Positions 40,117-60,783 of a stretch of DNA of 64,000 bases are shown one piece after another (position 1 is the stretch's first letter; each line of letters starts with the position of its first letter). Source of the stretch: a virus. Its lineage: Duplodnaviria > Caudoviricetes. Under the pieces are notes generated by a model. It searched no databases and was not told where the DNA came from. It saw nothing but the letters and a program-made list of their open reading frames with translations. A program made the translations under genes and the position numbers. The stretch covers positions 1 through 64,000 of the IMG/VR virus record IMGVR_UViG_3300028591_006041; one strand, given 5' to 3'.

Positions 40117-40467
40117 ATGAGAAATTTAAATAATTTTATTATAGAAAGACTTAAACTGAATAAAGATACAAAAATACGACAAAGTTTTAGTGAAGAATAT
40201 TGCATAGTAGTTCCATTTGAACTTAAGTGGTCTGTTTTTTGTCAAAAATATGAACAATGGTCAATTTGTGGCCATGGAGATTTCAACTTTTTCATTATAC
40301 CAATAAAAGATGTTATTGAAAAAACTATTGAACTTAAAAAATATAATGAATCTGTAGAAATCTATAAAATACCTAATAAATATGATAGTTTTGAAGAACT
40401 TAAAACAGATCATAAAAATAAAAAATTTCGTATCCAAGGTGGAAATTTAGAAAATTTAAAAATATGA
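40117..40467 (+). CDS. Leader-family protein 1 (putative capsid-targeted internal protein)
   Basis: MRNLNNFIIERLKLNKDTK. Confidence 0.8.
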   Translation: MRNLNNFIIERLKLNKDTKIRQSFSEEYCIVVPFELKWSVFCQKYEQWSICGHGDFNFFIIPIKDVIEKTIELKKYNESVEIYKIPNKYDSFEELKTDHKNKKFRIQGGNLENLKI

Positions 40468-40775
40468 ATAGAGATGGATATGTTTACTTATTATGTGATG
40501 GTGAGAAATTCAAAATAGGAATGACTCGTCAATCAAAAATAGAAAAAAGGATATTAGAATTGCAGACAGGTAATCCTAATGAGATATGGTTGCATTCTTA
40601 TTATAAGACAAAATATCCTAATAAAATAGAAAAGATGATGCACAGTAGACATGCATCATCTAATGTAAAAAATGAATGGTTTGATATGACAGTTACGGAA
40701 GTATTGAATTTTAAGAATGAATGTGCTAAATGTGAAAAAATATTGGATTCAATACAAGAAAACCCATTCATTTAA
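40464..40775 (+). CDS. GIY-YIG superfamily (T5orf172-like) protein
   Basis: GYVYLL...FKIGMT...RILELQTGNP...IEKMMH...EWF. Confidence 0.85.
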   Translation: MNRDGYVYLLCDGEKFKIGMTRQSKIEKRILELQTGNPNEIWLHSYYKTKYPNKIEKMMHSRHASSNVKNEWFDMTVTEVLNFKNECAKCEKILDSIQENPFI

Positions 40776-40779
40776 TAAC

Positions 40780-41985
40780 TTATTTATTGACAGAATTTAT
40801 TTCCGATATTGAGTTCTTAATGAACTTTTGTTTTCCTATGAAATCTTTTAAAGTAAAACAATTACAATATGACATACAAGACTGTAAATAACTTATCATA
40901 TTTTTTGTCCATCTTTTTAATGTAAATTCAATAGGAAGATATTTTGTAATTCCTTCAGCAGTTTTTGTTTTCTCACCGTTTATTGATTTTTGGCCATCTG
41001 CAGAAGCCATTCCAAAAAACTTTACAGTACATTTTCCTAAGTATTGTTCATTTCTTAGATTACGACATCCATTTTCTGTGTAATAATCTTTGGTTCCTCC
41101 TGGTGGTGTATTTGCTATTATAGTATTTATAGCTTCTTCAGTATAATAACCAAAAACTCCACCATTTTCCATTCTTAAAGATTTGAAATCATTTATATTA
41201 AAAATAGTATGTTTGCCATCATATTTTTCTCCAGCAGACTCTAAACATTGTGCAAACAAACTTCCAATCATTACATAATTAGCACCTAAGCCTAATGCTA
41301 TATTCACATGATTATAATTTCTAATTCCTCCATCTGCGATAATCTTTGGCGCACAAGAATGCTTAAGTTTTATTTTATAGCATTCTTCAATTAATGATGC
41401 TTGTGGGTAATGTGTGCTCACATTAGATGTAGTGATGCAACCGAAACCCCCACCAATGCCTACACGAATATAATCAACAGCAATGTATTTTGATTCAAAA
41501 TTAAAATTACATATCCATTCATATGTAGCTGGATTAGCAATATTTCCTGTCATAATTGTAAGATCATACTTGTAATTATCATAACAGATTATTTTTGCTT
41601 CTTCACAAGCCTCATATAATGATATCATATGACCATTAGCAATATCTACACATATACTATATTGAACATTAAAAAGTCTTTGATGAGCATGCTCAATAAA
41701 TAAATCTTTAAATTCGTTTAATGATAAAGCAACCCAAATGCCTTTATTCATTAATCTTATTCTTCTATCTAAATCAATATTTCTTGGGATGATAGGTGTT
41801 ATTCCATTTTCTATAAAAACTTCATAATTCTTATCTGATACTACAGAAGCCATAGGAGCTGTAAATATTGGAAGTCTTTCATCAACAGTAAAAGGATTAC
41901 ATTGACTTCTTGACTCTACATATGAAATTTTGGCTGGAATAATTGTTAAATCATTATATGCATAACCTTCTTTTTCTAAAATCAT
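40780..41985 (-). CDS. GMP reductase / IMP dehydrogenase family enzyme
   Basis: LPIFTAPM, VDIANGH, GNIA, RVGIGGGFGCITT (catalytic Cys loop), IIADGGIR, VMIGSLFA, FFGMAS, AEG. Confidence 0.88.
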   Translation of the reverse strand: MILEKEGYAYNDLTIIPAKISYVESRSQCNPFTVDERLPIFTAPMASVVSDKNYEVFIENGITPIIPRNIDLDRRIRLMNKGIWVALSLNEFKDLFIEHAHQRLFNVQYSICVDIANGHMISLYEACEEAKIICYDNYKYDLTIMTGNIANPATYEWICNFNFESKYIAVDYIRVGIGGGFGCITTSNVSTHYPQASLIEECYKIKLKHSCAPKIIADGGIRNYNHVNIALGLGANYVMIGSLFAQCLESAGEKYDGKHTIFNINDFKSLRMENGGVFGYYTEEAINTIIANTPPGGTKDYYTENGCRNLRNEQYLGKCTVKFFGMASADGQKSINGEKTKTAEGITKYLPIEFTLKRWTKNMISYLQSCMSYCNCFTLKDFIGKQKFIKNSISEINSVNK

Positions 41986-41990
41986 AATAT

Positions 41991-42003
41991 TATTTTTAAT
42001 AAA
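41991..42003 (+). promoter_or_regulatory. Putative late promoter motif TATTTTTAATAAA
   Basis: Exact motif heading the leader-family cluster at 42031-44757. Confidence 0.65.
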
Positions 42004-42030
42004 ATTATAAATTTAATATAGAAACATTTC

Positions 42031-42492
42031 ATGAAAAATTTAACTCTATTTATTGCAGAGCGGCTTAAATTGGATAAAGATACTAAAATAAAAGAAAATA
42101 ATGATGTATTAAATTCTATATTAGCTCATTTTGAATTTGATGAATTATTAAACGCAAGTTCAACTTATTTACGAAAAGAACCATTTTTAACTAAAGAAGA
42201 AGGTGAAGAAATAAAATCTAAACTTTTAGAATTCATAATAGATAATAATATAGTAGATGTTAAAAAATTGAAATATTGTACTAATAGAGGAAGAAAGTTT
42301 AAAGATAAGAAAATCAATAAAGATTATAAAAAAGATAATGCATATTGGTCGGCCCTCGATCTTAAATTATATAAAGATAAAGATGCTATTGAAATTTATA
42401 AGAAAAATGGATTAACTTTTAAAGTTAGTTCAGAAGTCAAATTGATAGCTATGTATGGGCCTTATGGTGGTGTAAAAATATGTGAATTTTAA
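42031..42492 (+). CDS. Leader-family protein 2
   Basis: MKNLTLFIAERLKLDKDTK. Confidence 0.8.
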   Translation: MKNLTLFIAERLKLDKDTKIKENNDVLNSILAHFEFDELLNASSTYLRKEPFLTKEEGEEIKSKLLEFIIDNNIVDVKKLKYCTNRGRKFKDKKINKDYKKDNAYWSALDLKLYKDKDAIEIYKKNGLTFKVSSEVKLIAMYGPYGGVKICEF

Positions 42493-42494
42493 TA

Positions 42495-42869
42495 ATGAAA
42501 ACATTAAATAATTTTATAGTTGAACGTCTTAAAATCAATAAAGATACTAAAATATTTAAAATTAGTTTAACTGATGGAGAATTACAAAACTTATATGATG
42601 TTTTAGAAGATTTTTATAATTATGCATATAGTGATCTTTTTAACAAACAAAGTGATAGAGATGAAGCTATGAAATGCTGGAAAAATAGAAAACCTTATGG
42701 TTTTTTAGAAGATGCAAAAACATTTGATGAGGACTTTAGAAATATTATTTCATTTATAGTAGAATATGCTGATGATTATAGTTTAATGAAATCTTTAAGA
42801 GATACAGATAAAATAATGACTTGTAAACAAATAGAAGATATAAAAAATTATTTTATAGATTTAATATGA
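42495..42869 (+). CDS. Leader-family protein 3
   Basis: MKTLNNFIVERLKINKDTK. Confidence 0.8.
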   Translation: MKTLNNFIVERLKINKDTKIFKISLTDGELQNLYDVLEDFYNYAYSDLFNKQSDRDEAMKCWKNRKPYGFLEDAKTFDEDFRNIISFIVEYADDYSLMKSLRDTDKIMTCKQIEDIKNYFIDLI

Positions 42870-43186
42870 AGAATTTAAATGATTTTATATTGGAACGTCT
42901 AAAATTAGATAGAAGTACTAAAATTACTAAAACATCAAGTTCATATAATGCAGAAGACTTTCCAGTAAAAACACGAAAGAACAGTGGTGAAAAATTTCAA
43001 TGGTTTCAATGGTGGGAATATGTATTAGATAATGGACCAATAAGTAAATCTGACTTATTGATTAAATTTGGTAAAGAACCAACAAGTTATTCTACAGTAT
43101 TTGCTGATTTATCAAAAAAGAATATTATAGTTCCTCAAAAAAGAAAATTAGTATCAATGCCACCAGAAAAATGGATTATAAAATAA
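42866..43186 (+). CDS. Leader-family protein 4
   Basis: MKNLNDFILERLKLDRSTK. Confidence 0.8.
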   Translation: MKNLNDFILERLKLDRSTKITKTSSSYNAEDFPVKTRKNSGEKFQWFQWWEYVLDNGPISKSDLLIKFGKEPTSYSTVFADLSKKNIIVPQKRKLVSMPPEKWIIK

Positions 43187-43238
43187 AACATAAAATTTTA
43201 TATATAGAGTGTTTACCAAATAAATTAATTTTTATAAT

Positions 43239-43448
43239 TTGATAGTTAAACCAAGATCAGATTGCAATAAGCATATAATCAGGCGTGAACATTATGCCCG
43301 AAAGGATGGCCAATGGAAGCCAAAGAAACAATTTGATTCACAAGAAGAATCAGATCAATGGATAAAAAAATATAAACTTTATGGTTATTCTTCATATGTT
43401 TGTAAAGTATGTGGGAAATGGCATATAGGAATGAAAAAGAAAGAATGA
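43239..43448 (+). CDS. Small protein with YxCxxCxxWH motif
   Basis: KKQFDSQEES...YVCKVCGKWHIG; similar motif in 61206..61622. TTG start uncertain. Confidence 0.6.
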   Translation: MIVKPRSDCNKHIIRREHYARKDGQWKPKKQFDSQEESDQWIKKYKLYGYSSYVCKVCGKWHIGMKKKE

Positions 43449-44296
43449 GAAATTTAAATCAATTTATTATAGAACGACTTAAACTTAATAAAAACTCTAG
43501 AGTTAAAGATATATTAAGACCAAAGGATTTTTTTGAATTTCAAGAAATAATTGGTAATAAGCTTAAAAATTTAGGTGACAATAAAGAATATTTAGATTTA
43601 AAAGATTTAGATATATCTGACTATAAAGGTTCGGGAAAACAAGATGAACGTTTTGATAGGATTTTGAAAAAATTTTTATCTTCATATAATACAAAATATG
43701 ATTATAATATAAAATATATTGATGTTACAGGATGGGATTTGACTCATATAGATTCTGTAGCAGGACTTTTTCATGCACTCCAAGATATTGAAGAAATTAT
43801 AGGTATTGATGATTGGGATATGTCTAATGTAGAACATATTGAATGGATATTTTCCGATTGTGTTAAATTAAAAAATATAGGTAATTTAGGAAAATGGAAA
43901 TTCAATAATTTAAAAAGAGCACAAGGATTTATTTATGGATGTCAACATTTGAAAACTATAGGTGACATATCTAAATGGGATATGTCTAATGTAGATTTTT
44001 TAGCTAATATGTTTGCTCATTGTTATGATTTACAAGATGTTGGCGAAATAGCTAATTGGGATTTATCATCTTGTATATCTTATAGAAGTATATTTTATTA
44101 TACCATTAATTTAAGAAATGTAGGAGATCTTACAAAATGGAATAAATATATAAAATCAAATATTCAAAATATAAAAAACAGATATAATGGATATTTGGAT
44201 GATGGATTTGAAGAAATATTTGATAATTCTGCTGTAGAATATAACTATGAATTAATAATAACTGAAAAAACCGCAAAAATAAAAAAATTAGTATAA
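43445..44296 (+). CDS. Leader-family protein 5 with DUF285-like WDxSNV repeats
   Basis: Start moved to ATG 43445 (MRNLNQFIIERLKLNKNSR); repeats WDLTHI, WDMSNV, WKFNNL, WDMSNV, WDLSSC. Confidence 0.82.
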   Translation: MRNLNQFIIERLKLNKNSRVKDILRPKDFFEFQEIIGNKLKNLGDNKEYLDLKDLDISDYKGSGKQDERFDRILKKFLSSYNTKYDYNIKYIDVTGWDLTHIDSVAGLFHALQDIEEIIGIDDWDMSNVEHIEWIFSDCVKLKNIGNLGKWKFNNLKRAQGFIYGCQHLKTIGDISKWDMSNVDFLANMFAHCYDLQDVGEIANWDLSSCISYRSIFYYTINLRNVGDLTKWNKYIKSNIQNIKNRYNGYLDDGFEEIFDNSAVEYNYELIITEKTAKIKKLV

Positions 44297-44757
44297 TGAG
44301 AAATTTAAATCAGTTTATTGTTGAAAGACTTAAAATTAATAAAGATACTAAAGTCAATCCGTATGAGTTTTCTGATGAAGAATTAATGAAAGATTATAAT
44401 GAAATATCATATGCTTATACTAAAGCAGAAAAAATGCCTATAGCTAAAAAGTATGGTATTACAACAATAAGAATAAAAGATATTCAACAAGCTATTTTAA
44501 TAAAACTTAGAGATAATCGTCATATTAAAAAAGATTTTACAGAAGATGATGTTCGTAATTTTTTCAGATTAGATGTTCCAGAAAGATATAATAGAATGAA
44601 AGAATATTTAGATCAAGAATCAACAGAATTTATAGAATATTTATTAGAACATCTTAAAGAAAAAGCCAAGAAAATACGATATCCATATTTGAGTTATGCA
44701 GATAAAACATTATTGAATAGAATTAAAAATATTGAGAAATATTTAAATGAAAAATAG
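44296..44757 (+). CDS. Leader-family protein 6
   Basis: MRNLNQFIVERLKINKDTK. Confidence 0.8.
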   Translation: MRNLNQFIVERLKINKDTKVNPYEFSDEELMKDYNEISYAYTKAEKMPIAKKYGITTIRIKDIQQAILIKLRDNRHIKKDFTEDDVRNFFRLDVPERYNRMKEYLDQESTEFIEYLLEHLKEKAKKIRYPYLSYADKTLLNRIKNIEKYLNEK

Positions 44758-44765
44758 ATAGTTGA

Positions 44766-45407
44766 TTACCAACTATCTATATTTGTTATATTATATATGA
44801 AATCTTCTACATAAATATCAAAAATCCATCCTAATCCTGTACCAGTTATTTTTATTGTTAATGGTTGTTTATATTCATTATAGATTTCCATAAATCTGTA
44901 AAATTCTATTTTATCAAATTTAGGATAATGAAATTTCTTGTTAGTTATTTCTACTGATGAATTTATGCATTTATCCTTTTCTTCACAATCTAAACATTGT
45001 ACATATTCAAAATTACATCTTGGAAGCATTAGTTCTTCTTGGTTGTAATTTATCTTATAAACTAATTCAAATCCACCTCCAATTGTTCCGAATTTATTCA
45101 TTCCATTTTCTTTTCTAACACATGAGCTATGTTTTTTCTCAAAATTCGATATTTGTTGAAGTTGTAATGAATCAAGTTTGAACAATTTATATGCATACTT
45201 ATCCCAGAAAAATTCAGTTATTCTATCTCTTAATTGATTGATTGTCTTAATATTTATGTAATCATATTTCTCTCCAATATGTCTTGAAAAATTAAGTACT
45301 TCACCATTTTTATCTATTAAATACTCTTGAGCTAAATACTCATAATTATTTATATTACTGAAAAAATTTCCTGCGTTTCTTGTGTTGTCAATAATTATTG
45401 TTTTCAT
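44766..45407 (-). CDS. Hypothetical protein
   Basis: 213-aa ORF with a duplicated GxG-x-F/W-like element (GTIGGGFE, TGLGWIF). Confidence 0.65.
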   Translation of the reverse strand: MKTIIIDNTRNAGNFFSNINNYEYLAQEYLIDKNGEVLNFSRHIGEKYDYINIKTINQLRDRITEFFWDKYAYKLFKLDSLQLQQISNFEKKHSSCVRKENGMNKFGTIGGGFELVYKINYNQEELMLPRCNFEYVQCLDCEEKDKCINSSVEITNKKFHYPKFDKIEFYRFMEIYNEYKQPLTIKITGTGLGWIFDIYVEDFIYNITNIDSW

Positions 45408-45790
45408 AACTTCTTTACATTTTTAGTTTTTTCATCCAATTCATATCCTGCCTTTTTCATTCCTTTAAATAACATTTGTCGTTCTTCATTTGATGATAAA
45501 TGATAGTCTTTTTTATCATAATCATCAACAAACCCCATACTGGCGCTAGAACCATCATTATAATAAATATCTTTTTTACTATCATAATATCCTATATATC
45601 TAACTAATTTACCATAAGGTTGCCTATCTTCAAACTTATCAAATATGAATATCAATAAATGATTTTTATCATTTATATAATACGTTGTTATGATATCACC
45701 CTTTTTAGCATCTTTAATTGAGTATGAAGACAATTTAGAATTTTTATTTAGTTTTAGACGTTCATTTACAAATTCATTGATTTTTTTCAT
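45404..45790 (-). CDS. Leader-family protein 7
   Basis: MKKINEFVNERLKLNKNSK; preceded by the late-motif variant TATTTTTAATTA on the - strand. Confidence 0.78.
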   Translation of the reverse strand: MKKINEFVNERLKLNKNSKLSSYSIKDAKKGDIITTYYINDKNHLLIFIFDKFEDRQPYGKLVRYIGYYDSKKDIYYNDGSSASMGFVDDYDKKDYHLSSNEERQMLFKGMKKAGYELDEKTKNVKKL

Positions 45791-45825
45791 AGATTATTTC
45801 ATTAATTTATAATTAAAAATAATTC

Positions 45826-48800
45826 CTAAAATGGCACCTCGTTGCCAAATAAATCTAACTTATTGTCATTATTGTTTTCTTCATTCTCATCATTCTCATT
45901 TTCTATGCTAAATATGTCATCTTTAAGTTTGTTTGTATTCTTTTGCTTAATCATAAATCTGTTATTTGAATTATCCTTTTCACTGTAATCATAATAATCA
46001 AATTCCTTATGTACAATATTTGGCAATTCACTAATGATATCTTCTAATTTGACCTTTGATGTATGCTCAAAATCTTTGAGTTCTTCTTCTACGTCATCTT
46101 TATTATTATCTTTTATATTATTTTCATCTATTAATTGTTCTAAGAAGAATGTCTTTGTATTTATATCACCATAAATATTGATTACATCCAATTTTGATTC
46201 CCATAATAACTCAAATGGCTTAATGTTTATTTTTCCATTTTTTGGCCTACTTTCAACAATTATTATTTTCCAATAATCTTGAATTATGTCAAATATCTTA
46301 GAAGCATATTCAATATCATCAATAACAACATCTTTAATAGAATTGCAATATTTACATGACCATTCTGCCAAAAACATATCAATATCTCCTCGAGTTGTTT
46401 CAGGATTTTCTTGTGCCCAATTCTTACAATCATATAAGAATCTCATTATTGGAAAATCCAAACGTTTTTTCTTTCTGTTATTTTCAATATTGACAAACAT
46501 TCTTATTCTGTTAAGTTTTGAAAAATTCAAACGATTAGATTTCAAATCAATACAATAATCATAGATTTCTCGAATTCTGTCACAATCATATGTTTTGTAA
46601 AGACTTAATATTATTGGTACATGTTTTTCAAGAATCTCAATATCATCAACATATAAGTCATTTTCTTCTCTTATTCTCTTATTGTCTTCATCAGTATCTT
46701 TATATATTGAATAATTTCCTTTCAATAATTCTCTATATAAGTCAATATTTCCATCAGATACATGACTAAGAAGTTTTCTAACTTTTATAGTATCTTCATT
46801 GAATTTAACATTTCGACAAGCCTTCATGAATTCTTCTAATTCTTCAACTTTATCTTCAGGAGTTTCTTTATCACTTTTCGATATTTTGACATCATATCCA
46901 TAATATTTGATTCCATTAATCATAACATTCAATTGTTTAGAATATTCAGAATATCTTTCTTCAAATACCTTCAATTTATAAGTAGTCTCATCAATATAAT
47001 ATTTGCAATCATTCTCATCATATTTAAGATATTTGTTTGTACTAAGTAATGAGCTTATAATTGGATTATATTTTGATTCTTCATAGTTTCTTTCTAACAT
47101 ATCATTACAAGTCTTAACTAAATCTCTTGCTGTCATCAAATCATTTTGACTAAAACTTAAGTCAAGTGGTTTAATATAATCATAATTCAATGGTAATCCA
47201 TTTTTATCGAATAATGGTAAATATATCTTAATATGTAAATTATTGTTTCTAATCCTATTTGCGAATTGTTCAATATCTTGAGGAATCCAAGTCTCATTGA
47301 AATATATTACAAAATCATAAGGATCACAAATATCTACTCCTACACTTAAATAAGTTGAACAAAATATTATATCATTATTTCCAATTGTCTTATTTATGTT
47401 TATATTATCCATTGACTCTTCACCATATTGTGATTTCTTATAATAGAATTTTTTCAGTTCTCTTGGAAATTCCATTTCATTCAATATTTTTTGAATCATT
47501 CCGGTTATTTGCTCATAATATAATATTCCGCGATTTGTTGGAAATAATATTTTTTTACCTTCTTTTATATTTTGTGCCATATCTACACACATGTCTCTAA
47601 TTTGTTCTGTAGATGATGGTACTAAATTGATTATGCATTCTTTAACTCTTAAGTCTTCCTTTTTCACTTTAATATGTTTGATATTTGGAAAGAATAGCAT
47701 TTCTCCTGTTGGTGTTCCACTCATCATAATTATCTTAGCTTTACAATTTGCTAAACGTTGAATACATGGTCCCATAACTTCTCGATAAGATGATGTAAAC
47801 AATAAATGAGACTCATCTATAACTATATATTTGAAATTTGCGGCATCCAACTCATAAACATTCAAATGAGAAAACTTATCAATAGTCATAGACATATTTT
47901 GATTTCCCATAATGTCACTTAATGTAGGTTTTTTATTTCCATAAAAATACAACCAATCTTTTGTTACACTTGATGCTTCAACTTTAGCTTTAATAGTTGA
48001 TGTGAATGGTAATATAAGTAATGTTTTGTCTTTTAGAGACTTAATCATTTCTGTCTTACCATATCCTGCACCTGCCTCTAATAGAGTTATATGATCCAAA
48101 TTTTTCACAATTTCATCTTTTATGTCACTAAGATATTGATCTTTAGTAATTGTCAATATTGTTTGATTTGTTTTATCATTCAATATTTTTATTGGATCAA
48201 TTTTATTGTCTAAATTTTTTATCTCATTTTCTATTTGAGTTAAGTTGACATTATCAATATCTTTCTTAATCTTTATATTGAATCCATGTTGGTTATTAAG
48301 CTCATTGATAGCCCAAGTTGTCATTGGTTTATGATGTATTGCTGCAGTCTTTATATCTCCTTTCAATTCCCTCATAGATACATCTTTACATATACTGCAT
48401 ATTATCTTAAATGCTTTTTGTTCACCAAATAATGATGTAAGAGTATTAGCCAATTGCCATCTATGGAAGTGTTTGTAGTGTTTGCTACCTTTTGACTTAC
48501 TTAAATCATAATTTATGTCTTTATCAATATTTTCTAATTCAATATTTGTACTATCATTGAAGTCATCATTACTAAACCAATCCAATTTACTAAATATGTT
48601 TTTCAAATCAGGATGAGATATCCAATTTATTGACTCAACACCATTGTTCAAAGCTGACTCAAAGTTGATATCTAATCTTAAATCATTGAAATTAGTTGAA
48701 AGATAAGCATTGTCTGAAGATATGAATATACCCTGTTGAGGTTTACCTACAGCCATATCCATATAATTGTATATAGATTCTTTGTTATATCCATATTTGT

Positions 48801-49449
48801 CACAATATTTCAATAACATAATATATACATAAGAATACTTATGCCTAAAATTGCATAGATATTCAATTCTTCTGTTCTCATATTTCACAGTTATTGGAGT
48901 TATCTTTGTCCAAACATGAAGAGATTTCTTAGATGCTGACCTACATATTCCTAAGAACCAATGAAATTTTGACAAATCATTAAACAAATCATCTTTCAAC
49001 TCATTAGATATGTTCTCATCTTTTATATCCAAGTCAATAATTTGAAGACCATTCCACATTTGATAAGCTATATCTCCAATTGGACGATTATTTGATGAAG
49101 TTGGAAATACCATATTACGATGAATCTTATCTATTTTTGAATAATCCTCATCATACATTAAATCATAAATTTCTTTCCAATTGAATATTCTACCAACTTT
49201 ATCATATATAGAATTTACAACCAAACATTCTATCAATTGTAGTTGATCATTATAGAATTCTTGTTGTTCTTCTTTAGAACATTTATCAAATAATATGTTT
49301 GAATATTTGTTTAAGTTTGAATTATAATCTATATTTATGTTTTCTTTAGAAATACAACTAAATGATTCTAAAATTTCAGATAATGACTTATTCTTAGTAT
49401 TATCATATAAGCTATTTATTTTCTTTATACCGTTATTCAAAACTGTCAT
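45826..49449 (-). CDS. Primase-like (VirE-N/BT4734-type) plus SF2 helicase fusion
   Basis: N-terminal WNGLQIIDLD...SASKKSLH primase-like motifs; helicase GAGYGKT, VIDESH, MSGTP, STYLSVGVDI, EQFANRIR. Confidence 0.75.
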   Translation of the reverse strand: MTVLNNGIKKINSLYDNTKNKSLSEILESFSCISKENINIDYNSNLNKYSNILFDKCSKEEQQEFYNDQLQLIECLVVNSIYDKVGRIFNWKEIYDLMYDEDYSKIDKIHRNMVFPTSSNNRPIGDIAYQMWNGLQIIDLDIKDENISNELKDDLFNDLSKFHWFLGICRSASKKSLHVWTKITPITVKYENRRIEYLCNFRHKYSYVYIMLLKYCDKYGYNKESIYNYMDMAVGKPQQGIFISSDNAYLSTNFNDLRLDINFESALNNGVESINWISHPDLKNIFSKLDWFSNDDFNDSTNIELENIDKDINYDLSKSKGSKHYKHFHRWQLANTLTSLFGEQKAFKIICSICKDVSMRELKGDIKTAAIHHKPMTTWAINELNNQHGFNIKIKKDIDNVNLTQIENEIKNLDNKIDPIKILNDKTNQTILTITKDQYLSDIKDEIVKNLDHITLLEAGAGYGKTEMIKSLKDKTLLILPFTSTIKAKVEASSVTKDWLYFYGNKKPTLSDIMGNQNMSMTIDKFSHLNVYELDAANFKYIVIDESHLLFTSSYREVMGPCIQRLANCKAKIIMMSGTPTGEMLFFPNIKHIKVKKEDLRVKECIINLVPSSTEQIRDMCVDMAQNIKEGKKILFPTNRGILYYEQITGMIQKILNEMEFPRELKKFYYKKSQYGEESMDNININKTIGNNDIIFCSTYLSVGVDICDPYDFVIYFNETWIPQDIEQFANRIRNNNLHIKIYLPLFDKNGLPLNYDYIKPLDLSFSQNDLMTARDLVKTCNDMLERNYEESKYNPIISSLLSTNKYLKYDENDCKYYIDETTYKLKVFEERYSEYSKQLNVMINGIKYYGYDVKISKSDKETPEDKVEELEEFMKACRNVKFNEDTIKVRKLLSHVSDGNIDLYRELLKGNYSIYKDTDEDNKRIREENDLYVDDIEILEKHVPIILSLYKTYDCDRIREIYDYCIDLKSNRLNFSKLNRIRMFVNIENNRKKKRLDFPIMRFLYDCKNWAQENPETTRGDIDMFLAEWSCKYCNSIKDVVIDDIEYASKIFDIIQDYWKIIIVESRPKNGKINIKPFELLWESKLDVINIYGDINTKTFFLEQLIDENNIKDNNKDDVEEELKDFEHTSKVKLEDIISELPNIVHKEFDYYDYSEKDNSNNRFMIKQKNTNKLKDDIFSIENENDENEENNNDNKLDLFGNEVPF

Positions 49450-49538
49450 TAAAAATATAATTAATTAAATATAGTTAACTATTTGACAAAGATTCCTATT
49501 AAAAATATTTTTTATTTCGATTATTTTTTATGATTTTA

Positions 49539-49566: not shown

Positions 49567-49587
49567 ATATATGTAATTAATTTATAT

Positions 49588-49949: not shown

Positions 49950-50828
49950 ATGCCTTGCAATACAATTAATCAAAAAATAAATAACATTAATATTGATGAA
50001 ACTCAAAACAATTCTTCTCAATCAATGGAAGAATTTTTGAAACTAAAACAACAACAAGAAGATCAAGTTGACTATCAATTCATACAAAGAATAATTCAAG
50101 AATTGACACAATCATGTGCATTACCTCTTCCAATTCCTGCAGCTTCAATTCCACCATTGATTATTCAGGCTGCTCAATGGTTTTGGGCTAATGATGATAG
50201 AATGATTAATGAAAGATATTTTGTAGTTCGTAATAAAGATTTTTGTAGGAAATGCAGTAATACAATTATCAAATTACCACCTCAAATTCTTAGTGTATTT
50301 GGAGTATATAAAGTTCATCCTAATTATTATTATGGAGCAATGGGAGATTTTTCACTTGAACGTATGGTAATTAATAATACTGTTTTAGCTTCTGGCGCAG
50401 GTGGATCATTATCAGATACTTATGGAATGGGAACAGGATATAACCTTACCGATATGATGGCAGGGCTCTATGAAATACAAACTTTTAAAGCTATGTTTGA
50501 TGTTCCTTTGACATTCAATTACAATGAATTTTCAAATGAGTTAGTAATACTTGGACAGTTAGGAGTTTCTGATGTAGTATTACAAACATTTACAAGATGT
50601 AAAATTCAAGATATGTATAAAGATTATTATTTCTTTAGACTTTGTGTATGTTTTGGATTAAGAAGTATGGCTACTATTATGGGTGCTTTTGAGTTTAGAT
50701 TACCCGGTGGTACTACAATAAACTATTCTACATTTAGAGAAATGGCTGAAACTGAAATAGATAAGATAGAAGAATGGGTAGTTAAAAATCATTCTACTGA
50801 CTATTTCTTCAATTCGAATACAATTTAA
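49950..50828 (+). CDS. Neck/head-completion protein, T4 gp13-like
   Basis: IKLPPQILSVFGV, FNYNEFSNELVILG, and FEFRLPGGTTINY...AETEIDKIEE (LPGG motif). Confidence 0.8.
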   Translation: MPCNTINQKINNINIDETQNNSSQSMEEFLKLKQQQEDQVDYQFIQRIIQELTQSCALPLPIPAASIPPLIIQAAQWFWANDDRMINERYFVVRNKDFCRKCSNTIIKLPPQILSVFGVYKVHPNYYYGAMGDFSLERMVINNTVLASGAGGSLSDTYGMGTGYNLTDMMAGLYEIQTFKAMFDVPLTFNYNEFSNELVILGQLGVSDVVLQTFTRCKIQDMYKDYYFFRLCVCFGLRSMATIMGAFEFRLPGGTTINYSTFREMAETEIDKIEEWVVKNHSTDYFFNSNTI

Positions 50829-53900: not shown

Positions 53901-56076
53901 TAATATGAATTGGTAAGAAATAAGTTTGCCAATAATATTTAAGGGCATCTAATTTAAGCGCCATTTCAGTAAATATGAATCTATAATAAGGTTTATAGAA
54001 TGATATGTCATCATGAACAACTTCTACATTTTTCTTAAATAAATCTTCTAATATAGGTTTTCCTTCACCTATTAATTGATTAGAATAATTTTGATCATAT
54101 TTTTCTCCTGTCTCAATATTGCCATTCATTGTTAAGGAAATAAGATTTGTAGTATTAAAATATTTGAAGGTAGATTTCATATCATTCTCAACATTGAAAT
54201 AATCTAATACATATTGGTCAAATATGTCATTATCTGTTTTCAATAATTTGCTAATTGTTAAATGATTATGCCATCCAAACCATTTAAGTGAATTTATTAC
54301 TGATTTGAAATTTCCACATTCTCCTTTTATTGACATATAATTCATTAATAGCTCTTTCATTTTTTGTTTTAAAAGTTCTTCATTAGGATATAAAGATTCA
54401 AAAGAACTATCATAGAATGCTCTTAATATGTCTTTAGGTAAATTAATACCCATATTTTTTCCATTAATTATAAGTGGTTCACATTCATCAACAAAAGTGC
54501 AACCAACAGTAATAGGTGTATATTTTGTTTTATATACATATTCTTCTATTTCAATTGTATCATTAGTTAATTGACTTATTATAGAATTATCTACATCAAA
54601 CCAAATATCTCTTATCGCATCATTATACAAATATTGAGTTGGTTTAAGTTCTAAACTATAACCACCATTTTCATCTCTTGGAAAAATTTCATGATTTCTG
54701 TATTGACTAAATTCTGTCGATTTAAAGTCATATTCTATTCCATCATATTCATATCTTGTAAATGTTGTTTCACCGTCCTTTTGATTACCGCTTTCATTTA
54801 TAATTTTATGTTTTTCTGTAAAAAATTTACCACCATATACTGGAAAAAATTGATCATAATATATACGTTTAACTGTTTCAATCAAATTATTCATTGTGTT
54901 TTTATATTCACTGGCTGCATCAGGACCAACCATTGTAATCCACCATTCACCATTAGAATATTCCATCATATCATATGATGTAATAGGAATGTCATCATCA
55001 TAACTATATGAAATACTTAATTTATATTGTTTTCCATCATATTCAATAATATTTTCATCTGCAATTTCTTGTAAGCTTTTTACATTTACATTTAAAGATT
55101 CAATATTAGGATATTCATCATAAATTAAATATTCTTTATTATATCCATTGCTTGGATATGAATTGTTACCATCATAATTTATTCTTAATACACTTCCACA
55201 TTCTCTACATCCATATTTTATTTTTCCAATAAATTTATATTTATCATCATTTTTCAACCATTTGTTTTTAGGTAATTTAAATATGATTTGATATATATCA
55301 TTAGGTAAATTTGACCAAAAATTTATTCTGAATTTTTGATCAGGAACATTAGCATCATTAGAATCAAATTTAGTAGATAATATTTTATTATTGTTTTTAT
55401 ATAATATTTCTACTGATTCTGGATTAAATTCATTTTTGATAGTATACCACTGTTCATAATTATTAGAATTTTCATTATATTTAAGAATATTTATATTGGA
55501 AAATGTTTCTTTAATTATTTTATTGAATACTTGTTCTTTTGTATATACTACTGTTTTCTTTTCTTCTGTTTTTGAATTTATCTTAATCATTATGTTTGAA
55601 AGATAAGTACCCTCAAACTTAGATCTACCTATAACATAAAATGGAAATAAATAAAATTTCTTACCTTTATCCTCTACAATTAAATTTTGTGTATTATCAT
55701 AAAAATCAAAATAAAAATCATCTAAAGTCAATATAGTCTTACATTCATTAAAATCAATTAATAAGCTTTCATTAATATTTGATTTTTGTTCTAATTTTTC
55801 TTGTATATATTTTGGACCAATTAATTTAAACACACTTGATTGAATGCTTATTTCAATATCAAATGGTTTTGTCAAATGATCATTTTCATCTTCTTCAAAT
55901 GATATTTCATTTTCGTTAATTATAAATCTAATTGGTTTTATATAAAAATTATTTACAGAAACTTCATTATCTTTTAACCAAAATATATAATCATTTTCTT
56001 TATATTTATATAAAACAGGATTATCATCATATGTTTGTAAACTAAAAACATGTCCTGTACTATCTATGAACTCCAT
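50944..56076 (-). CDS. Very large putative virion protein with C-terminal DUF1566/C-type-lectin-like domain
   Basis: 1710 aa; late-motif variant upstream; C-terminal PAVACAWRY...GDWFIPS...FFTSTP...LWDIH resembles the GDWYLPS..EL...WSST..AW pattern. Confidence 0.6.
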   Translation of the reverse strand: MEFIDSTGHVFSLQTYDDNPVLYKYKENDYIFWLKDNEVSVNNFYIKPIRFIINENEISFEEDENDHLTKPFDIEISIQSSVFKLIGPKYIQEKLEQKSNINESLLIDFNECKTILTLDDFYFDFYDNTQNLIVEDKGKKFYLFPFYVIGRSKFEGTYLSNIMIKINSKTEEKKTVVYTKEQVFNKIIKETFSNINILKYNENSNNYEQWYTIKNEFNPESVEILYKNNNKILSTKFDSNDANVPDQKFRINFWSNLPNDIYQIIFKLPKNKWLKNDDKYKFIGKIKYGCRECGSVLRINYDGNNSYPSNGYNKEYLIYDEYPNIESLNVNVKSLQEIADENIIEYDGKQYKLSISYSYDDDIPITSYDMMEYSNGEWWITMVGPDAASEYKNTMNNLIETVKRIYYDQFFPVYGGKFFTEKHKIINESGNQKDGETTFTRYEYDGIEYDFKSTEFSQYRNHEIFPRDENGGYSLELKPTQYLYNDAIRDIWFDVDNSIISQLTNDTIEIEEYVYKTKYTPITVGCTFVDECEPLIINGKNMGINLPKDILRAFYDSSFESLYPNEELLKQKMKELLMNYMSIKGECGNFKSVINSLKWFGWHNHLTISKLLKTDNDIFDQYVLDYFNVENDMKSTFKYFNTTNLISLTMNGNIETGEKYDQNYSNQLIGEGKPILEDLFKKNVEVVHDDISFYKPYYRFIFTEMALKLDALKYYWQTYFLPIHIKIKRASINYKVYANTIKLTSNPMILNTATPIFVTNDNIRVEFPSYNKLLFYKSQHYIDSNFNEFSNYNENYSNEDLYLINENCIYIPIRIIDNNSLYSEYEYGNYIKTSYGEYMKIYKLFSSKLDNNTISLEETNDLKLATHFRVSKYDKTIYAFKDIETNEILYNRYTKISSGLFKCKLILSCIKRTQSDTGKYIYIDGKYKYKDKFYNQFIDDFTLENNIYYENIKRNYVDYNGKCIYVDKKDRYDIESHILVEDNDFIFYQTPENYFNNYIILPRYLNKKNNLSKMDWLNCEYRLSVFVNNKWFYYDFTINVPSIYLEFGKLKYQYYLKDEISMFKQLSQQHPNLIFNSFMYQPNLVSIDTLFYDKDTDNVLTFIEKLADIKDKNDEDNDNTNRRMQEFYLRYYKNKIQIPYNKNYFNKIHLFELYDKSTNQKVQYDGNPFNQELYDDLFENTNFKGIIEEAVQYDAYLMHDNPNITEDGKIPYWYIVFISRYPIGNYNDDSLLELQKTEYVFDNYKIRYTGYNTQKFLVNRMNVIPTNGLNHFNKNDLVVVGVYNNDLQFNIDLNTKWEISKIYDTKYNLNVYQNTNLAIINNNNMDGFYDPGYYDVRLNYTISGLDGYQYETKAIYKINNNIESIYYPKIKEYVIPKESYNINTVISDFKIMYENNNGERIYTTNILDPSIGYHPIGIKVVNANYFEEGSPALYMGLTRLSLFNPDHGRTEIGAETINERPYFGMSGHYIDGLPGYTKICFYNETGTSSSTHLCPQTDIALYDNGSPRPWCNSDGTPRWPAPNNRMWTRDPSVRNNCCINILNDDDTFNTNMFDNNCALSNWNGLENNRIIIDNFDENLYPNWRTEQYSSDHPMPNPKDKKFSPAVACAWRYHTVSTNQGDWFIPSVPNVLFMMFNFKKYSDIFLELTSHDEYKPYCKSDLLSGNGNTFFTSTPSPSSNTTLWDIHMFGVCHVFVKDADWESIPYIFINE

Positions 56077-56115
56077 ATACCTAAAATATTTATATATAAT
56101 TAAAAATAATTAGTT

Positions 56116-56128
56116 TATTTTTAATAAA
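56116..56128 (+). promoter_or_regulatory. Putative late promoter motif TATTTTTAATAAA
   Basis: Exact motif heading the run 56151-60783. Confidence 0.65.
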
Positions 56129-56150
56129 GCATAAATTTGTTATTTTACGT

Positions 56151-57176
56151 ATGAAAAGTTTTAAAAAGACTTATATAATTAACGAGAATGTCAACGGTAT
56201 AAATGGGTTTGTCATTCTTAAACCTGAATTCTTAAATCATAAAGAAAATTTTTTGAAAATGTTATCAAATAATGGATGGCAAATAATTCAAAAAAATGAA
56301 AGAACATTATCTTTAGAAGAAGCCAAAGAACTATATAAGATGCATAGTAAAAAGGATTTCTATAATGACTTATGTAAGTATATGAGTTCTTCTAATTGTT
56401 TATGTTGTTCATGTCATAAGGATTGTAAAGATCCTATTAAAGAAATGAATGATTTGAAAGATAAGGTTCGTAAGACTTGGGGTAAAGATGAGATGAAAAA
56501 TGGAATGCATTCATCTGACTCATTAGAAAATGTCAATAGAGAAAGTAAGTTGATATTTGAAAAGAAATTTACAGAAGAAATGGACATTAAAGTAACTACA
56601 GAACCTGACACATTTGTAGATTTATTTGATAATGTAAAATTTTTAGATGAGCCACAACAACCAATTTCTAAAGTTCAATCTAAATGTGTTGAATTAGGAA
56701 TAAGCATGAATGATGAAGAATTTGAAAAATTGAAATTTATGCTTAGCAATGCATTGGCTGAAGAATTCAATGCTTGGTATGCTTATACTATAATCATTCC
56801 ATTCTTATATGGTCCACTACGTCCAGATGTTGTTGAGTTCTTTAAAGAAACAGCTAAAGATGAGTTAGAAGATCATGCTTATTGGTTGATGGAAAGACTT
56901 AATCAATTAGGAGTAGAATTGAGTAATGTTTCTGATCCAGCATTTTGGAATACTGTAGCTACTCATAAATACATTTATCCTACTAATGACACTTTAGGTG
57001 CAATTCAAAACAATATCAAAGCAGAACAAGGAGCTATAGAGACTTATACTAAATTAGAAGAATTTACAAGAGATAAAGATGTTGTAACGAATTGTAAGAT
57101 AAAGGAAATACTTAAAGATGAACAAGAGCATTTGTCAGATCTTTATGATTTGAGAAAAGATATAACTAATTTTTAA
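56151..57176 (+). CDS. Nucleoside diphosphate kinase - ferritin/Dps-like fusion
   Basis: NDK: FVILKPE, EEAKELYKMH.KKDFY..L, NGMHSSDS (phospho-His). Ferritin-like: AEEFNAWYAY, ELEDHA, EQGAI, DEQEH. Confidence 0.85.
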   Translation: MKSFKKTYIINENVNGINGFVILKPEFLNHKENFLKMLSNNGWQIIQKNERTLSLEEAKELYKMHSKKDFYNDLCKYMSSSNCLCCSCHKDCKDPIKEMNDLKDKVRKTWGKDEMKNGMHSSDSLENVNRESKLIFEKKFTEEMDIKVTTEPDTFVDLFDNVKFLDEPQQPISKVQSKCVELGISMNDEEFEKLKFMLSNALAEEFNAWYAYTIIIPFLYGPLRPDVVEFFKETAKDELEDHAYWLMERLNQLGVELSNVSDPAFWNTVATHKYIYPTNDTLGAIQNNIKAEQGAIETYTKLEEFTRDKDVVTNCKIKEILKDEQEHLSDLYDLRKDITNF

Positions 57177-57179
57177 TTT

Positions 57180-57770
57180 ATGGCAGATTTAGAAAAACGT
57201 TTTTTCATAACTAATTCTCATAGTGATTATGAAACTTTTATAAATGATAACATCTTTGAAAGAGAAACATTGATATATGATCAAGAACATCTTCATTATA
57301 ATAAACCAACAAAAATTCCATATTTGGAATCTAATTTTTATAATGGATATGATGGACAATTAGGAGCTAAAGATATCTTTGAAACATTAGAATCATTTTA
57401 TAATGATTATAATAAAAATTATAATAATCAGTTTAATGTTAATAATAGTGCATATTATTATTTTTTGTTAATGACTGAGTCAGAATATAGTGAGGTATAT
57501 GGTAACATATATAGTAAATTATCTGATTATATAAAACAACATAATTCAAATGCTAGTTCTAATTTTAATTTACAAAATTATGAATCTTCATATGGTGAAA
57601 GTTATTATAATCTTTATTTAAGATGTAATACTATAGGAACAGGATATCATGAAGTTAATGGTGGTAGAGGTTATCTTTCTGGTTATTATTTAACTGTAAA
57701 AGATACATTAACAAATGAAACTTTACAAGAAGTATTTTTAGGATACGTTGTGGAAGGTTTTTATAATTAA
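57180..57770 (+). CDS. Hypothetical N/Y-rich protein
   Basis: 196-aa ORF in the late run. Confidence 0.7.
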   Translation: MADLEKRFFITNSHSDYETFINDNIFERETLIYDQEHLHYNKPTKIPYLESNFYNGYDGQLGAKDIFETLESFYNDYNKNYNNQFNVNNSAYYYFLLMTESEYSEVYGNIYSKLSDYIKQHNSNASSNFNLQNYESSYGESYYNLYLRCNTIGTGYHEVNGGRGYLSGYYLTVKDTLTNETLQEVFLGYVVEGFYN

Positions 57771-57792
57771 ATAAACTGTTTAAATTATTTAT

Positions 57793-58545
57793 ATGAAAAA
57801 TTTAAATCAATTCATTATAGAACGTCTTAAGATTACTAAAGATTCTAAGTTTTCTAAAGCTAAATTAGATAGAAGTTTTATAGATATATTAAGTTATGTA
57901 ATTAATGATTTTGAGGGTAAACGATTTAGTGCAAGATATTCATTAGAATTTTTATATAATATTTTCTGTGAAGCTATGTCAGAATCAGCAGAAGTAATAC
58001 ATTATGCATATGATAAAAAAGGAAAACGTATACAAAGTGATATGCAAATGTGTACTATTAAAGCTGGTAAAAATTTATTTCATATTAAAGAAGATAATTA
58101 TGGACAATTAGAATTCGATGATAATGATAAATGCCTTGATATATGGGGAAGTGGTAGAGGAAGTGAAGTATATTTTGGTGTATGTCTTATAGAAGATGTA
58201 TTCAATAAATCTATTCATTTTAAAATAAAAGAAGATCAAATTGATTTATCAGATATTAAGAATATATTTGGTATAGAAGATGAATCAAAATTTAAAATTG
58301 ATATTAGAGTTTATAATGTTAATGGATGGAAAGTTTATGTTGGAACAATACATAAAAAGAATGCAACAAGTTTGTCAAATTACATACATACAACTGTTGT
58401 ATTACCGAATAATAATACATATAAAAGTTATTATTATTGTGATGGGGCAGGAATGACTGGTTCTGATGATCATTATTCAGGAAATGATGAAAATGACTTT
58501 AAAGATAGTATAAAAAAACTAATAGAAAATCATTTACACTTATGA
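57793..58545 (+). CDS. Leader-family protein 8
   Basis: MKNLNQFIIERLKITKDSK. Confidence 0.8.
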   Translation: MKNLNQFIIERLKITKDSKFSKAKLDRSFIDILSYVINDFEGKRFSARYSLEFLYNIFCEAMSESAEVIHYAYDKKGKRIQSDMQMCTIKAGKNLFHIKEDNYGQLEFDDNDKCLDIWGSGRGSEVYFGVCLIEDVFNKSIHFKIKEDQIDLSDIKNIFGIEDESKFKIDIRVYNVNGWKVYVGTIHKKNATSLSNYIHTTVVLPNNNTYKSYYYCDGAGMTGSDDHYSGNDENDFKDSIKKLIENHLHL

Positions 58546-59078
58546 AAAATATTGTACAATATATAACTGAAGCAATTAAAGATGTTGATCAGCAAATAAT
58601 TGAAATACTTAATTTTTATGCCAAAAATATGTCTGGTGTTCAACAAGAACTATATAAGCAAAAAATAAAAGATGCTGATTCTGTTGATATAGTTCCATTA
58701 TCAGAAGTATTTTCTGAAGAAGAAATTGAAGATATTGAACGTATAGTCAGACCTCAACCAAAATGTTGTTATGAGAATGCATGGAAATTATGTGATAGGT
58801 TATCTTATGGAAAACATGACATAAAATATTGCGAAGGATATCTTAATATGAGAGGACTTCCTATAGATCATGCATTCAATAAAGTTGATGGAAAATATGT
58901 AGATATTACTATTGAATTAGCTTTAAATAAAGACATATCAAAAGAAGAAGATACTTATGTGATTATTGGAGAATATGATGACAATCAAGTTAGAGAAATA
59001 TTGCTTCAAAATGGATTCTATGGAGATATCTATAATACAATATTTTTGAATAAATATAAAGAAAACGTTAAGAAATGA
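58542..59078 (+). CDS. Transglutaminase/papain-like fold protein with relaxed leader
   Basis: PKCCYENAW (Cys), IDHAFN (His), YVDIT (Asp); leader MKNIVQYITE. Confidence 0.65.
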   Translation: MKNIVQYITEAIKDVDQQIIEILNFYAKNMSGVQQELYKQKIKDADSVDIVPLSEVFSEEEIEDIERIVRPQPKCCYENAWKLCDRLSYGKHDIKYCEGYLNMRGLPIDHAFNKVDGKYVDITIELALNKDISKEEDTYVIIGEYDDNQVREILLQNGFYGDIYNTIFLNKYKENVKK

Positions 59079-59587
59079 GAAACTTAAATCAATTTATTAC
59101 AGAACGACTTAAACTTACTAAAGATACAAAAGTATTTAATGATTATGAAGGTTTAGCTGAGAAAATGGTAAATTATGTTTGGCCAATAACTTATGAAAAT
59201 GATCAAGATGATATGAAAGAACATAAAAAATATGTTGAAGAAATAACAGAAATATTTAAGAAAAATGCAATTGTTGAAATTTCTAAACCAATGTACGGAG
59301 GTATGGACGGTTTAAAGGATTCACTATATGGATTAAATATTGATAAAGATATAGCTAAACAATATGGATTTAAAATGTCAGATTATAAAGAAGCACCAAT
59401 TCCAGATATTCAACATAATACAAAAATTAATTTAGATGATTTAGAAGATGAAGATAATGATAATTATATATTAATGAATGATTCAAATTTATGCTATACA
59501 ATTTATGGTGATTTTTCAGGAAAAAAGAATTTAATCATATTTTATAATTCTAGTGCAGATTATGCATTTATATTTTACGTAAAATAA
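59075..59587 (+). CDS. Leader-family protein 9
   Basis: MRNLNQFITERLKLTKDTK. Confidence 0.8.
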   Translation: MRNLNQFITERLKLTKDTKVFNDYEGLAEKMVNYVWPITYENDQDDMKEHKKYVEEITEIFKKNAIVEISKPMYGGMDGLKDSLYGLNIDKDIAKQYGFKMSDYKEAPIPDIQHNTKINLDDLEDEDNDNYILMNDSNLCYTIYGDFSGKKNLIIFYNSSADYAFIFYVK

Positions 59588-59599
59588 GTTTTATTAAAA

Positions 59600-60145
59600 A
59601 TGAGAAATTTAAATAATTTTATATTAGAACGTCTTAAGTTAAATAAAGATACTAAAATTGATGACAGTAAATACTGTATATCATTAGATAATTTCATTAA
59701 GAAATATGATTTAGAATATAATGGAGAAACTATACATAATGGAATGACAGAATATAAAGTTCCGAGAGAAAAACCATTATGGAAAATTGTTAAGAAAAAT
59801 AATTCTTGGGAATATTGGACAGAATCTATAAATCATATTGAATCAGAATTCAATATTGATAAAGATAAATGGAGGATCAATATGAGTACTCCTGATGAAA
59901 GACGTGTAAGTTTCTTTATACAAAAATATATTTTTAGTAATGATCCGTGGACAACTATATCATTTGTAAGATTTGTTGATAAAGACTTAATAAAAATGGC
60001 AAATGATCCAGATTGTTATTTAGAATATTTTGTAGAAAATAATCATTATATTTTAAATGCATGTAAAATATCTAAAGATGAATTTCAATGGATAGAAAGA
60101 GTATTATTTACATGGATAGATTGGTTTATAGAAAAATGTAAATGA
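59600..60145 (+). CDS. Leader-family protein 10
   Basis: MRNLNNFILERLKLNKDTK. Confidence 0.8.
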   Translation: MRNLNNFILERLKLNKDTKIDDSKYCISLDNFIKKYDLEYNGETIHNGMTEYKVPREKPLWKIVKKNNSWEYWTESINHIESEFNIDKDKWRINMSTPDERRVSFFIQKYIFSNDPWTTISFVRFVDKDLIKMANDPDCYLEYFVENNHYILNACKISKDEFQWIERVLFTWIDWFIEKCK

Positions 60146-60174
60146 ATTTATATACAATAAAATTTATTTTAATT

Positions 60175-60783
60175 ATGAAAAATTTAAATCAATTCATTAT
60201 AGAACGACTTAAACTAAATAATAACAGTAAAGCAGATATTTATAATTTTTTTCCTAAATCTGCAATTGAATTAAATAATTTAGTAGAAAAATTATTGAAT
60301 GAAAGAGGACCTGATGCAGATTTAAATGATATAAATGTATCTAATGTTCCTGATTTTAATTATTCTCCTGAAGATAAAATAAAATATGATTTAGAACTTG
60401 ATTTTGGAATATTCTCTAATTTAGATCCTCACAACATTAAAATAGATAAATGGGATGTGCGTCATATTACAGATATGTCAAATATGTTTTTTAATTGTTA
60501 TAATTTAGATTGTAATTTAAATAATTGGAAAACAACTAATCTTGAAAATATATCTTATATGTTTTATGAATGTAAAAGATTTGATTCTAATTTAAGTAAT
60601 TGGGATGTTAGAAATGTTTTATATTGGGCAAATGCATTTGAAGGATGTATAAATTTTAAGGGTAAAGGATTAAATCAATGGAATCCAGAAAAATTAAAAT
60701 ATGGATATCATTGGGATATGTTTAAACAATGTAAAAAAATAAGAAAAAAACCACAATGGTATATTGATAAAATAATAAATTAA
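60175..60783 (+). CDS. Leader-family protein 11 with DUF285-like repeats
   Basis: Start moved to ATG 60175 (MKNLNQFIIERLKLNNNSK); WDVRHITDMSNMF, WKTTNLENISYMF, LSNWDVRNV. Confidence 0.82.
   Translation: MKNLNQFIIERLKLNNNSKADIYNFFPKSAIELNNLVEKLLNERGPDADLNDINVSNVPDFNYSPEDKIKYDLELDFGIFSNLDPHNIKIDKWDVRHITDMSNMFFNCYNLDCNLNNWKTTNLENISYMFYECKRFDSNLSNWDVRNVLYWANAFEGCINFKGKGLNQWNPEKLKYGYHWDMFKQCKKIRKKPQWYIDKIIN

Follow-up and report, generated by a model that had tools for sequence, protein, structure and literature searches.

A two-part N-terminal leader resembling the T4 capsid-targeting sequence on mostly unrelated small proteins of an uncultured T4-core jumbo phage

Why should eleven genes of a single phage, most of which encode unrelated proteins, begin with the same 19-20 residues? 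The DNA in which this question arises (hereafter the window) comprises the first 64 kb of the 81.7-kb IMG/VR viral contig IMGVR_UViG_3300028591_006041, which has a GC content of 25% and an estimated completeness of ~29% and represents an uncultured jumbo phage with a T4-type core. The window encodes a T4 gp13-type neck protein (gene at 49950) and a gp6-like baseplate wedge protein (gene at 12535), and additionally Hsp70, Ro60 and RimK-like ligases. On balance, we are inclined to regard the shared leader as an expanded, two-part relative of the load-and-clip capsid-targeting sequence (CTS) of T4. Judged from their sequences, the proteins that carry it are probably packaged in the head and injected. 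The leader genes, with lengths in amino acids (aa) and isoelectric points (pI), are:

40117-40467, plus strand: leader gene 1, 116 aa, orphan body, pI of the mature protein 8.7
42031-42492, plus strand: leader gene 2, 153 aa, orphan body, first gene of an operon of five leader genes
42495-42869, plus strand: leader gene 3, 124 aa, acidic orphan body, pI 4.8
42866-43186, plus strand: leader gene 4, 106 aa, basic orphan body, pI 9.9
43445-44296, plus strand: leader gene 5, 283 aa, DUF285/BspA-like repeat body (Pfam PF03382, E-value 3e-22)
44296-44757, plus strand: leader gene 6, 153 aa, confidently modelled all-alpha body of unassigned fold with a flexible leader (AlphaFold2, AF2)
45404-45790, minus strand: leader gene 7, encoded opposite to the other ten, 128 aa, orphan body
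57793-58545, plus strand: leader gene 8, 250 aa, orphan body, 91% identical to its orthologue in the relative L001
59075-59587, plus strand: leader gene 9, 170 aa, acidic orphan body, pI 4.7
59600-60145, plus strand: leader gene 10, 181 aa, orphan body, with an orthologue (P0001) that contains a duplicated leader unit
60175-60783, plus strand: leader gene 11, 202 aa, DUF285 body

All eleven open reading frames (ORFs) that a preliminary description of the window had reported to share one leader are present at these starts, and their N-termini read as described, as do the 'relaxed' N-termini that it noted at 19877, 58542 and 56151. The start choice is ambiguous for leader genes 5 and 11, for which rival in-frame ATGs are located upstream (at 43409 and 60142, respectively) and database gene calls disagree; the ATG of leader gene 5 overlaps the stop codon of an upstream 69-aa zinc-ribbon ORF. 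Across the eleven ORFs the consensus is M-[KR]-N-L-N-x-F-I-x-E-R-L-K-[LI]-x-K-D-T-K, in which M1, F7, E10, R11, L12 and K13 are invariant and L4, N5, I8 and K19 near-invariant. A six-frame motif scan located the leader at these eleven N-termini and nowhere else in the window, and a motif scan of the remaining 17.7 kb of the contig yielded no additional copy. A profile hidden Markov model (HMM) built from the first 30 residues of the eleven proteins (profile A2), recovers all of them within the genome with E-values of 1e-14 to 1e-18. Furthermore, a loose CTS pattern matches 11 of the 111 ORF N-termini of the contig, compared with 2 of 587 internal Met positions. At the DNA level (alignment A1), likeness opens at the ATG and ceases ~57 nucleotides (nt) further on, and the upstream DNA is dissimilar. 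Arg11 is encoded by AGA, CGT, CGA or CGG and position 14 by five Leu and two Ile codons; because the codons vary synonymously, the peptide is the level at which selection acts. Conservation at the RNA or DNA level was considered as the main cause and rejected on account of this synonymous variation and the unlike upstream DNA. The window thus contains a genuine, strictly N-terminal and modular leader under selection at the protein level, CTS-like in sequence and encoded in a T4-core genome.

The T4 CTS (MKTYQEFIAE) is removed by a single gp21 cut (PMC8442874). The propeptides of internal proteins span 10-19 residues, and amber-suppressor mutagenesis of the CTS attributed targeting to residues 4 and 7 and processing to residues 8 and 10 (PMC9026906). 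Since the conserved L4, F7, I8 and E10 of the leader coincide with these positions, the comparison with T4 that was drawn in the preliminary description is apt. Both sequences are N-terminal M-K tags with a hydrophobic residue at position 4, an aromatic residue at position 7, Ile at position 8 and Glu at position 10 within ~10 residues. Unlike the T4 CTS, the leader extends over 19-20 residues and includes a basic second segment, which is equally conserved and lacks a second Glu. T-even internal proteins are highly diverse and have only the CTS in common (PMC3012670); similarly, the proteins considered here are small and otherwise unrelated, share the leader alone, vary between relatives and occur in a clade with a T4-type head. 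T4 Ip1, Ip2 and Ip3 are all injected and inhibit restriction enzymes of the GmrSD type; relatives of T4 encode ~10 such proteins (PMC12373910). In contrast to the three of T4 and the ~10 of its relatives, the present contig fragment encodes eleven leader proteins and 29.5 kb of a related phage (G004, see below) encodes 19, and no body resembles a T4 internal protein. Diverse internal proteins under one CTS are a principle already known from T-even phages; the present case departs from them in lineage (uncultured T4-core jumbo phages) and scale, in having a conserved second segment and in the basic residue that follows the proposed cut.

In phiKZ-like phages, many head-internal proteins are cut after Glu by a gp21-related protease (gp175 in phiKZ, gp245 in SPN3US), and their propeptides contain redundant cut sites (PMC9026906). 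These propeptides of inner-body and ejection proteins resemble in this redundancy the tandem 11-residue units containing I-x-E, in two or three copies, that were identified in some relatives of the present phage; they differ in being long and varied with an S/A-x-E motif, whereas here a single shared leader occurs in a T4-core phage. The tandem units (P0065, P0057, P0062, P0001, P0045, P0046) precede a normal second segment, each with its own I-x-E. A parallel by analogy only is provided by encapsulins, in which a short terminal peptide addresses unrelated cargo into an HK97-fold shell; their cargo tags are usually C-terminal and uncleaved and show no sequence likeness to the leader.

How far the leader extends beyond the window was assessed in several ways. 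A word-indexed search retrieved 69 leader proteins, and an exhaustive HMM search of 1.84 billion representative proteins (E-value 0.001 or better) retrieved 140 leader-bearing clusters, with the match starting at residue 1 in 135 of them. M1 and E10 are invariant across the 140 clusters and I8, L12, K13 and K19 near-invariant; the 135 in-register leaders contain Ile8 in 123 cases, Phe or Tyr at position 7 in 131 and Leu, Ile or Phe at position 4 in 134. The database consensus reads M-K-[NT]-[LI]-N-x-[FY]-I-x-E-[RK]-L-K-[LI]-N-K-D-[ST]-K-[IVL]. The 125 full-length bodies behind these leaders (median 149 aa) form 84 clusters unrelated by BLAST; Pfam recognizes DUF285 in ten and CitG, TIR-like and nucleotidyltransferase domains in one each, and the rest have no match. 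In more distant relatives (L004, L006, L009, G004), M-K-x-L-x-x-[FY]-[IL]-x-E is kept and the second segment is altered or lost. A search of IMG/VR with a degenerate DNA pattern for the E-K type of leader returned five stretches, and the corresponding pattern for the E-R type no match; likewise, tblastn with a 20-residue leader found no match in 50,697 phage records. Literature searches found no paper describing leader families of this kind.

Close uncultured relatives of the phage are represented by ENA contigs of 284 kb and 428 kb, both carrying P0001. The 284-kb relative encodes at least 11 leader genes at two loci; eight of these lie beyond the part that the present contig covers, and leader gene 11 is missing at its syntenic locus. 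The isolates nearest by gp13, at 24-28% identity, are the Chryseobacterium phages MA9V-1/MA9V-2, the Sphingomonas phage PAU and the Tenacibaculum phages PTm1/PTm5/pT24. The Bacteroidales host assumed in the preliminary description is unsupported. The leader profile had no match in the complete genomes of PTm1, PAU, MA9V-2 and pT24 or in the uncultured 462-kb phage LR756500, in a search whose positive controls worked.

A complete relative of 223 kb (G001, the IMG/VR record of L010) is 50% identical in gp13 and differs by 13 points in GC content. It encodes 48 leader-related paralogues, all of which are DUF285 proteins: ~21 have the full leader, one residue shorter, and ~27 begin two residues ahead of the second segment, with stop codons upstream. 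G001 also has a gene for a Gp23 capsid protein and one for an S77 protease that carries a scaffold-like tail as a fusion. The protease has 2420 homologues in the database, many of them on contigs of 200-470 kb. Among 30 homologues of the clade protease (alignment A7), residues 7-10 read [LI]-[VI]-Y-E, with E10 and T11 invariant, an N-terminus reminiscent of the LIE-9 site described for T4 gp21 (PMC9026906). The register of this [LI]-[VI]-Y-E-T site equals that of I8-x-E10 in the leader. In addition, a 325-aa ORF adjoining the G001 capsid gene opens with a CTS-like decapeptide. The leader genes of G001 flank gp13 and abut the protease gene; many full-leader genes are located near gp13 and the protease-capsid module, and many short ones occur in arrays among replication-type genes. 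A complex prediction for the G001 protease domain (A7, residues 1-240) with a leader N-terminus (A6, residues 1-45) scored 0.00, which is evidence neither way. The second relative, G004 (the IMG/VR record of L046), is a 29.5-kb fragment with 19 leader ORFs of the E-K type and several ORFs that have the decapeptide alone. Here, leader genes come immediately after gp13 on the same strand, with stop codons overlapping the next start, and the region of gp13 and its large neighbours shows synteny with the window.

Two codon preferences accompany the synonymous variation described above. Arg11 is encoded by CGN in 9 of the 11 leader genes of the window, compared with 21% genome-wide (AGA makes up 74% of the genome's Arg codons), and Leu12 by CTT or CTA in all 11, compared with 24% genome-wide; in G001, 19 of 19 leaders use CGN for the equivalent Arg. 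This bias may reflect ancestral codons that were retained, or an unexplained constraint at the nucleotide level. It bears on the reading that the leader is no signal at all and represents an inherited DUF285 N-terminus, spread to adjacent ORFs by recombination between the conserved 57-nt arms and kept by gene conversion. In favour of such a remnant, the same leader occurs on DUF285 proteins in every lineage examined, and the Arg11 and Leu12 codons of the window look like ancestral ones retained. However, the amino acids are conserved with synonymous change across the 50% gp13 identity and 13 points of GC that separate G001 from the window, and the leader is kept in exact residue-1 register on no fewer than 84 unrelated bodies, where a neutral remnant would decay. 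We therefore consider this origin very improbable.

The expression context of the leader genes was also compared with that of structural genes. The window contains 13 copies of the motif TTATTTTTAAT, where 1.64 would be expected; they are mostly 22-31 nt ahead of an ATG, and the motif heads the baseplate operon and giant ORFs as well as leader units. The preliminary description had placed the leader clusters behind late motifs: TTATTTTTAAT indeed heads three of the four leader-gene units, with a variant ahead of 40117, and the assignment of this motif to a late class is presumptive. The sites ahead of leader units, and a hairpin between two of these units, are:

41990-42000, plus strand: TTATTTTTAAT, 31 nt ahead of leader gene 2
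45812-45822: TTATTTTTAAT, ahead of leader gene 7 (45790)
56115-56125: TTATTTTTAAT, ahead of the 56151 operon, which includes leader genes 8-11
44754-44780: two-way, terminator-like hairpin between converging leader operons

Other sites of the motif are located at 10211 (baseplate operon), 14222, 28767, 56099 (minus strand) and 62141 and, beyond the window in contig coordinates, ahead of 72456 and 80537 (minus strand). A second motif, ACTATATTAA, precedes the genes for Hsp70, the Ro60 operon, a helicase and IMPDH-like and dUTPase-like proteins, with sites on the minus strand at 7462, 10178, 33951, 40053 and 42021. A scan for sigma-70-type promoters performed no better than on shuffled sequence.

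Our preference for a T4-type signal is founded on the match of the leader with the T4 CTS at the functional positions 4, 7, 8 and 10, on its strictly N-terminal and modular occurrence, and on the T4-type head of the clade (gp13 and a gp6-like wedge, with S77 protease and Gp23 in G001). It is further based on the position of leader genes among structural genes in G004 and G001 and the sharing of TTATTTTTAAT with the baseplate operon, on the tandem I-x-E units, which recall the redundant cut sites of phiKZ, and on the AF2 model of the leader gene 6 product (44296), in which the body is confident and residues 1-21 are at ~50. In a T4-type scheme, the leader genes would be expressed together with virion genes, and the leader would form an amphipathic N-terminal helix (L4, F7, I8, L12, L14) that attaches to the scaffolding core while the prohead assembles. 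A T4-type (S77) prohead protease would then cut after the invariant Glu10, and the mature proteins, starting with R/K-L-K-[LI]-N-K-D-[ST]-K, would stay inside the head until they pass into the cell along with the DNA. As a portable module, the leader may have been placed by recombination on at least 84 unrelated small bodies within the clade. If it acts like the T4 CTS, phages of this clade would pack dozens of proteins that are delivered at the first moment of infection. The leader would then provide a sequence handle by which injected proteins, with at least 84 unrelated bodies, could be listed directly from metagenomes, and it could be used as a transferable tag to direct foreign proteins into large capsids.

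Several observations weigh against this T4-type interpretation. Late expression, core binding, cleavage, packaging and injection are all steps that we infer, and that TTATTTTTAAT marks late genes we infer from one annotated structural operon. Genes for S77 protease, scaffold and capsid are not on the 29%-complete contig, and for leader-bearing phages the protease is known only from G001, at 50% gp13 identity. The nearest cultured relatives searched do not have the leader, which leaves no virion proteome to consult. Directly behind the proposed cut stands an Arg or Lys in every case, where the other candidate sites of the clade have Thr, Gln or Ser. Some full-leader arrays of G001 adjoin replication-type genes, judged by eye. 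Furthermore, the second half of the leader is conserved equally with the first across the 140 clusters, a feature that would not be expected of a signal confined to the decapeptide and that the T4 model leaves unexplained, and the ~27 decapeptide-less DUF285 paralogues of G001 retain it.

The conserved second half thus poses a clear question beyond the T4 model. The preliminary description had set the basic segment apart from the T4-like decapeptide, and its status as a separate unit holds up, as it is conserved like the first half and occurs without the decapeptide in G001. Because the G001 paralogues and the distant relatives carry one half alone, the leader consists of two separable parts. 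One way to account for both is a two-part address in which the decapeptide would load the protein and be cut off, and the basic segment would then become the common N-terminus of dozens of different injected proteins and act as a second signal, a possibility we rate as unlikely. Such a signal might, with equally low probability, order exit with the DNA, hold the protein on the DNA or time its decay within the host through the exposed Arg or Lys; a role specifically in DNA tethering or ejection, as envisaged previously, is speculation. Under the same address, the decapeptide-less G001 paralogues, which start almost at the cut, could be the same effectors made after infection, an idea that is doubtful to the same degree.

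The Lys, Asp, Thr/Ser and Lys residues of the second segment also offer side chains that a ligase could join. The leader could be a recognition tag for an intracellular factor and not for the prohead; the RimK-like ATP-grasp ligases of the phage, a chaperone and a protease controlling how long the proteins last are the candidates. RimK-like genes are present in both leader genomes tested (16553-19880 in the window; 2116-3624 in G001, where the gene abuts two leader genes) and absent from the leader-less PTm1, PAU, MA9V-2 and pT24. Yet this co-occurrence concerns two related genomes only, and RimK-like genes are also found in T4-like cyanophages, Pelagibacter/Methylophilales myophages and YerA41, where the leader was not seen. 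Moreover, the RimK family modifies C-termini, not N-terminal leaders. Overall, an intracellular tag appears distinctly improbable. Hsp70 was considered as the partner of such a tag and rejected, as G001 has ~21 leaders and no Hsp70. The RimK-like gene of YerA41 is annotated as a structural protein.

The bodies behind the leader were described as mostly unrelated, and once the leader is removed the eleven window proteins indeed fall into ten groups unrelated by BLAST. A shared body, the DUF285/BspA-like repeat, was found only between leader genes 5 (43445) and 11 (60175), which score 78.9 and 82.7 bits, respectively, against PF03382 (cut-off 25). The remaining nine bodies have no Pfam or PHROG match, and PDB sequence searches with the products of 44296 and 42866 returned noise only. 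The AF2 model of 44296 has a mean predicted local distance difference test (pLDDT) score of 86, with 87-96 in the body and residues 1-21 forming a low-confidence N-terminal helix. It has no significant neighbour in the PDB (Foldseek), BFVD or the ESM Atlas, and the best hit of a wide VIA-align search (Z 6.9) covers a helical hairpin only. Inspection by eye had suggested a sigma-region-4-like or winged-helix body for 44296; the fold searches gave no support, and both guesses were dropped. The model of 57793 is unusably poor (pLDDT 56), and an Atlas feature search with 59600 found nothing. The earlier proposal that these proteins are anti-defence or takeover effectors gains no support from the window bodies, in which DUF285 is the only Pfam domain and the 44296 model matches no fold.

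DUF285/BspA-like families expand in giant viruses and jumbo phages, as exemplified by the 38 genes of Kratosvirus quantuckense, and two window genes and 48 G001 genes are members of this repeat family. The leader differs from such families in that it lies outside the Pfam model and also heads at least 80 non-DUF285 bodies. Because DUF285/BspA-type repeats are adhesin-like and the sole recognizable bodies of the window, and all 48 leader-related paralogues of G001 contain them, the leader could be an uncleaved docking tag that fixes interchangeable small binding modules (DUF285/LRR and others) to a shared anchor on the virion surface, neck or fibre, so that the proteins would be displayed and not injected. 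The conserved second segment would suit a retained binding epitope, and leader genes adjoin neck and other structural genes. On the other hand, ~125 of the 140 clusters are small orphans without an adhesin-like domain, the invariant Glu10 in its I-x-E context is left unexplained, tandem cut-site units are hard to square with a fixed plug, and the decapeptide-less paralogues of G001 would need another mode of docking. Display through such a tag therefore seems to us an improbable function, and we retain the T4-type load-and-clip signal as the preferred interpretation.

Three further genes adjoin the leader genes in the window:

58542-59078, plus strand: gene with the decapeptide alone (M-K-N-I-V-Q-Y-I-T-E, without the second segment), inside the array of leader genes and kept in L001
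56151-57176, plus strand: NDK-ferritin fusion (PF00334 and PF00210) with a looser I-x-E N-terminus, heading the operon of leader genes 8-11
40464-40775: gene with a MUG113/T5orf172 (GIY-YIG-like) domain, directly 3' of leader gene 1

Orthologues of leader gene 1 are P0005, P0018, P0020, P0022 and P0029. The NDK-ferritin/rubrerythrin fusion is kept in the relatives L001, L003, L006 and L007; HK97-fold encapsulins classically take up ferritin-like proteins as cargo.

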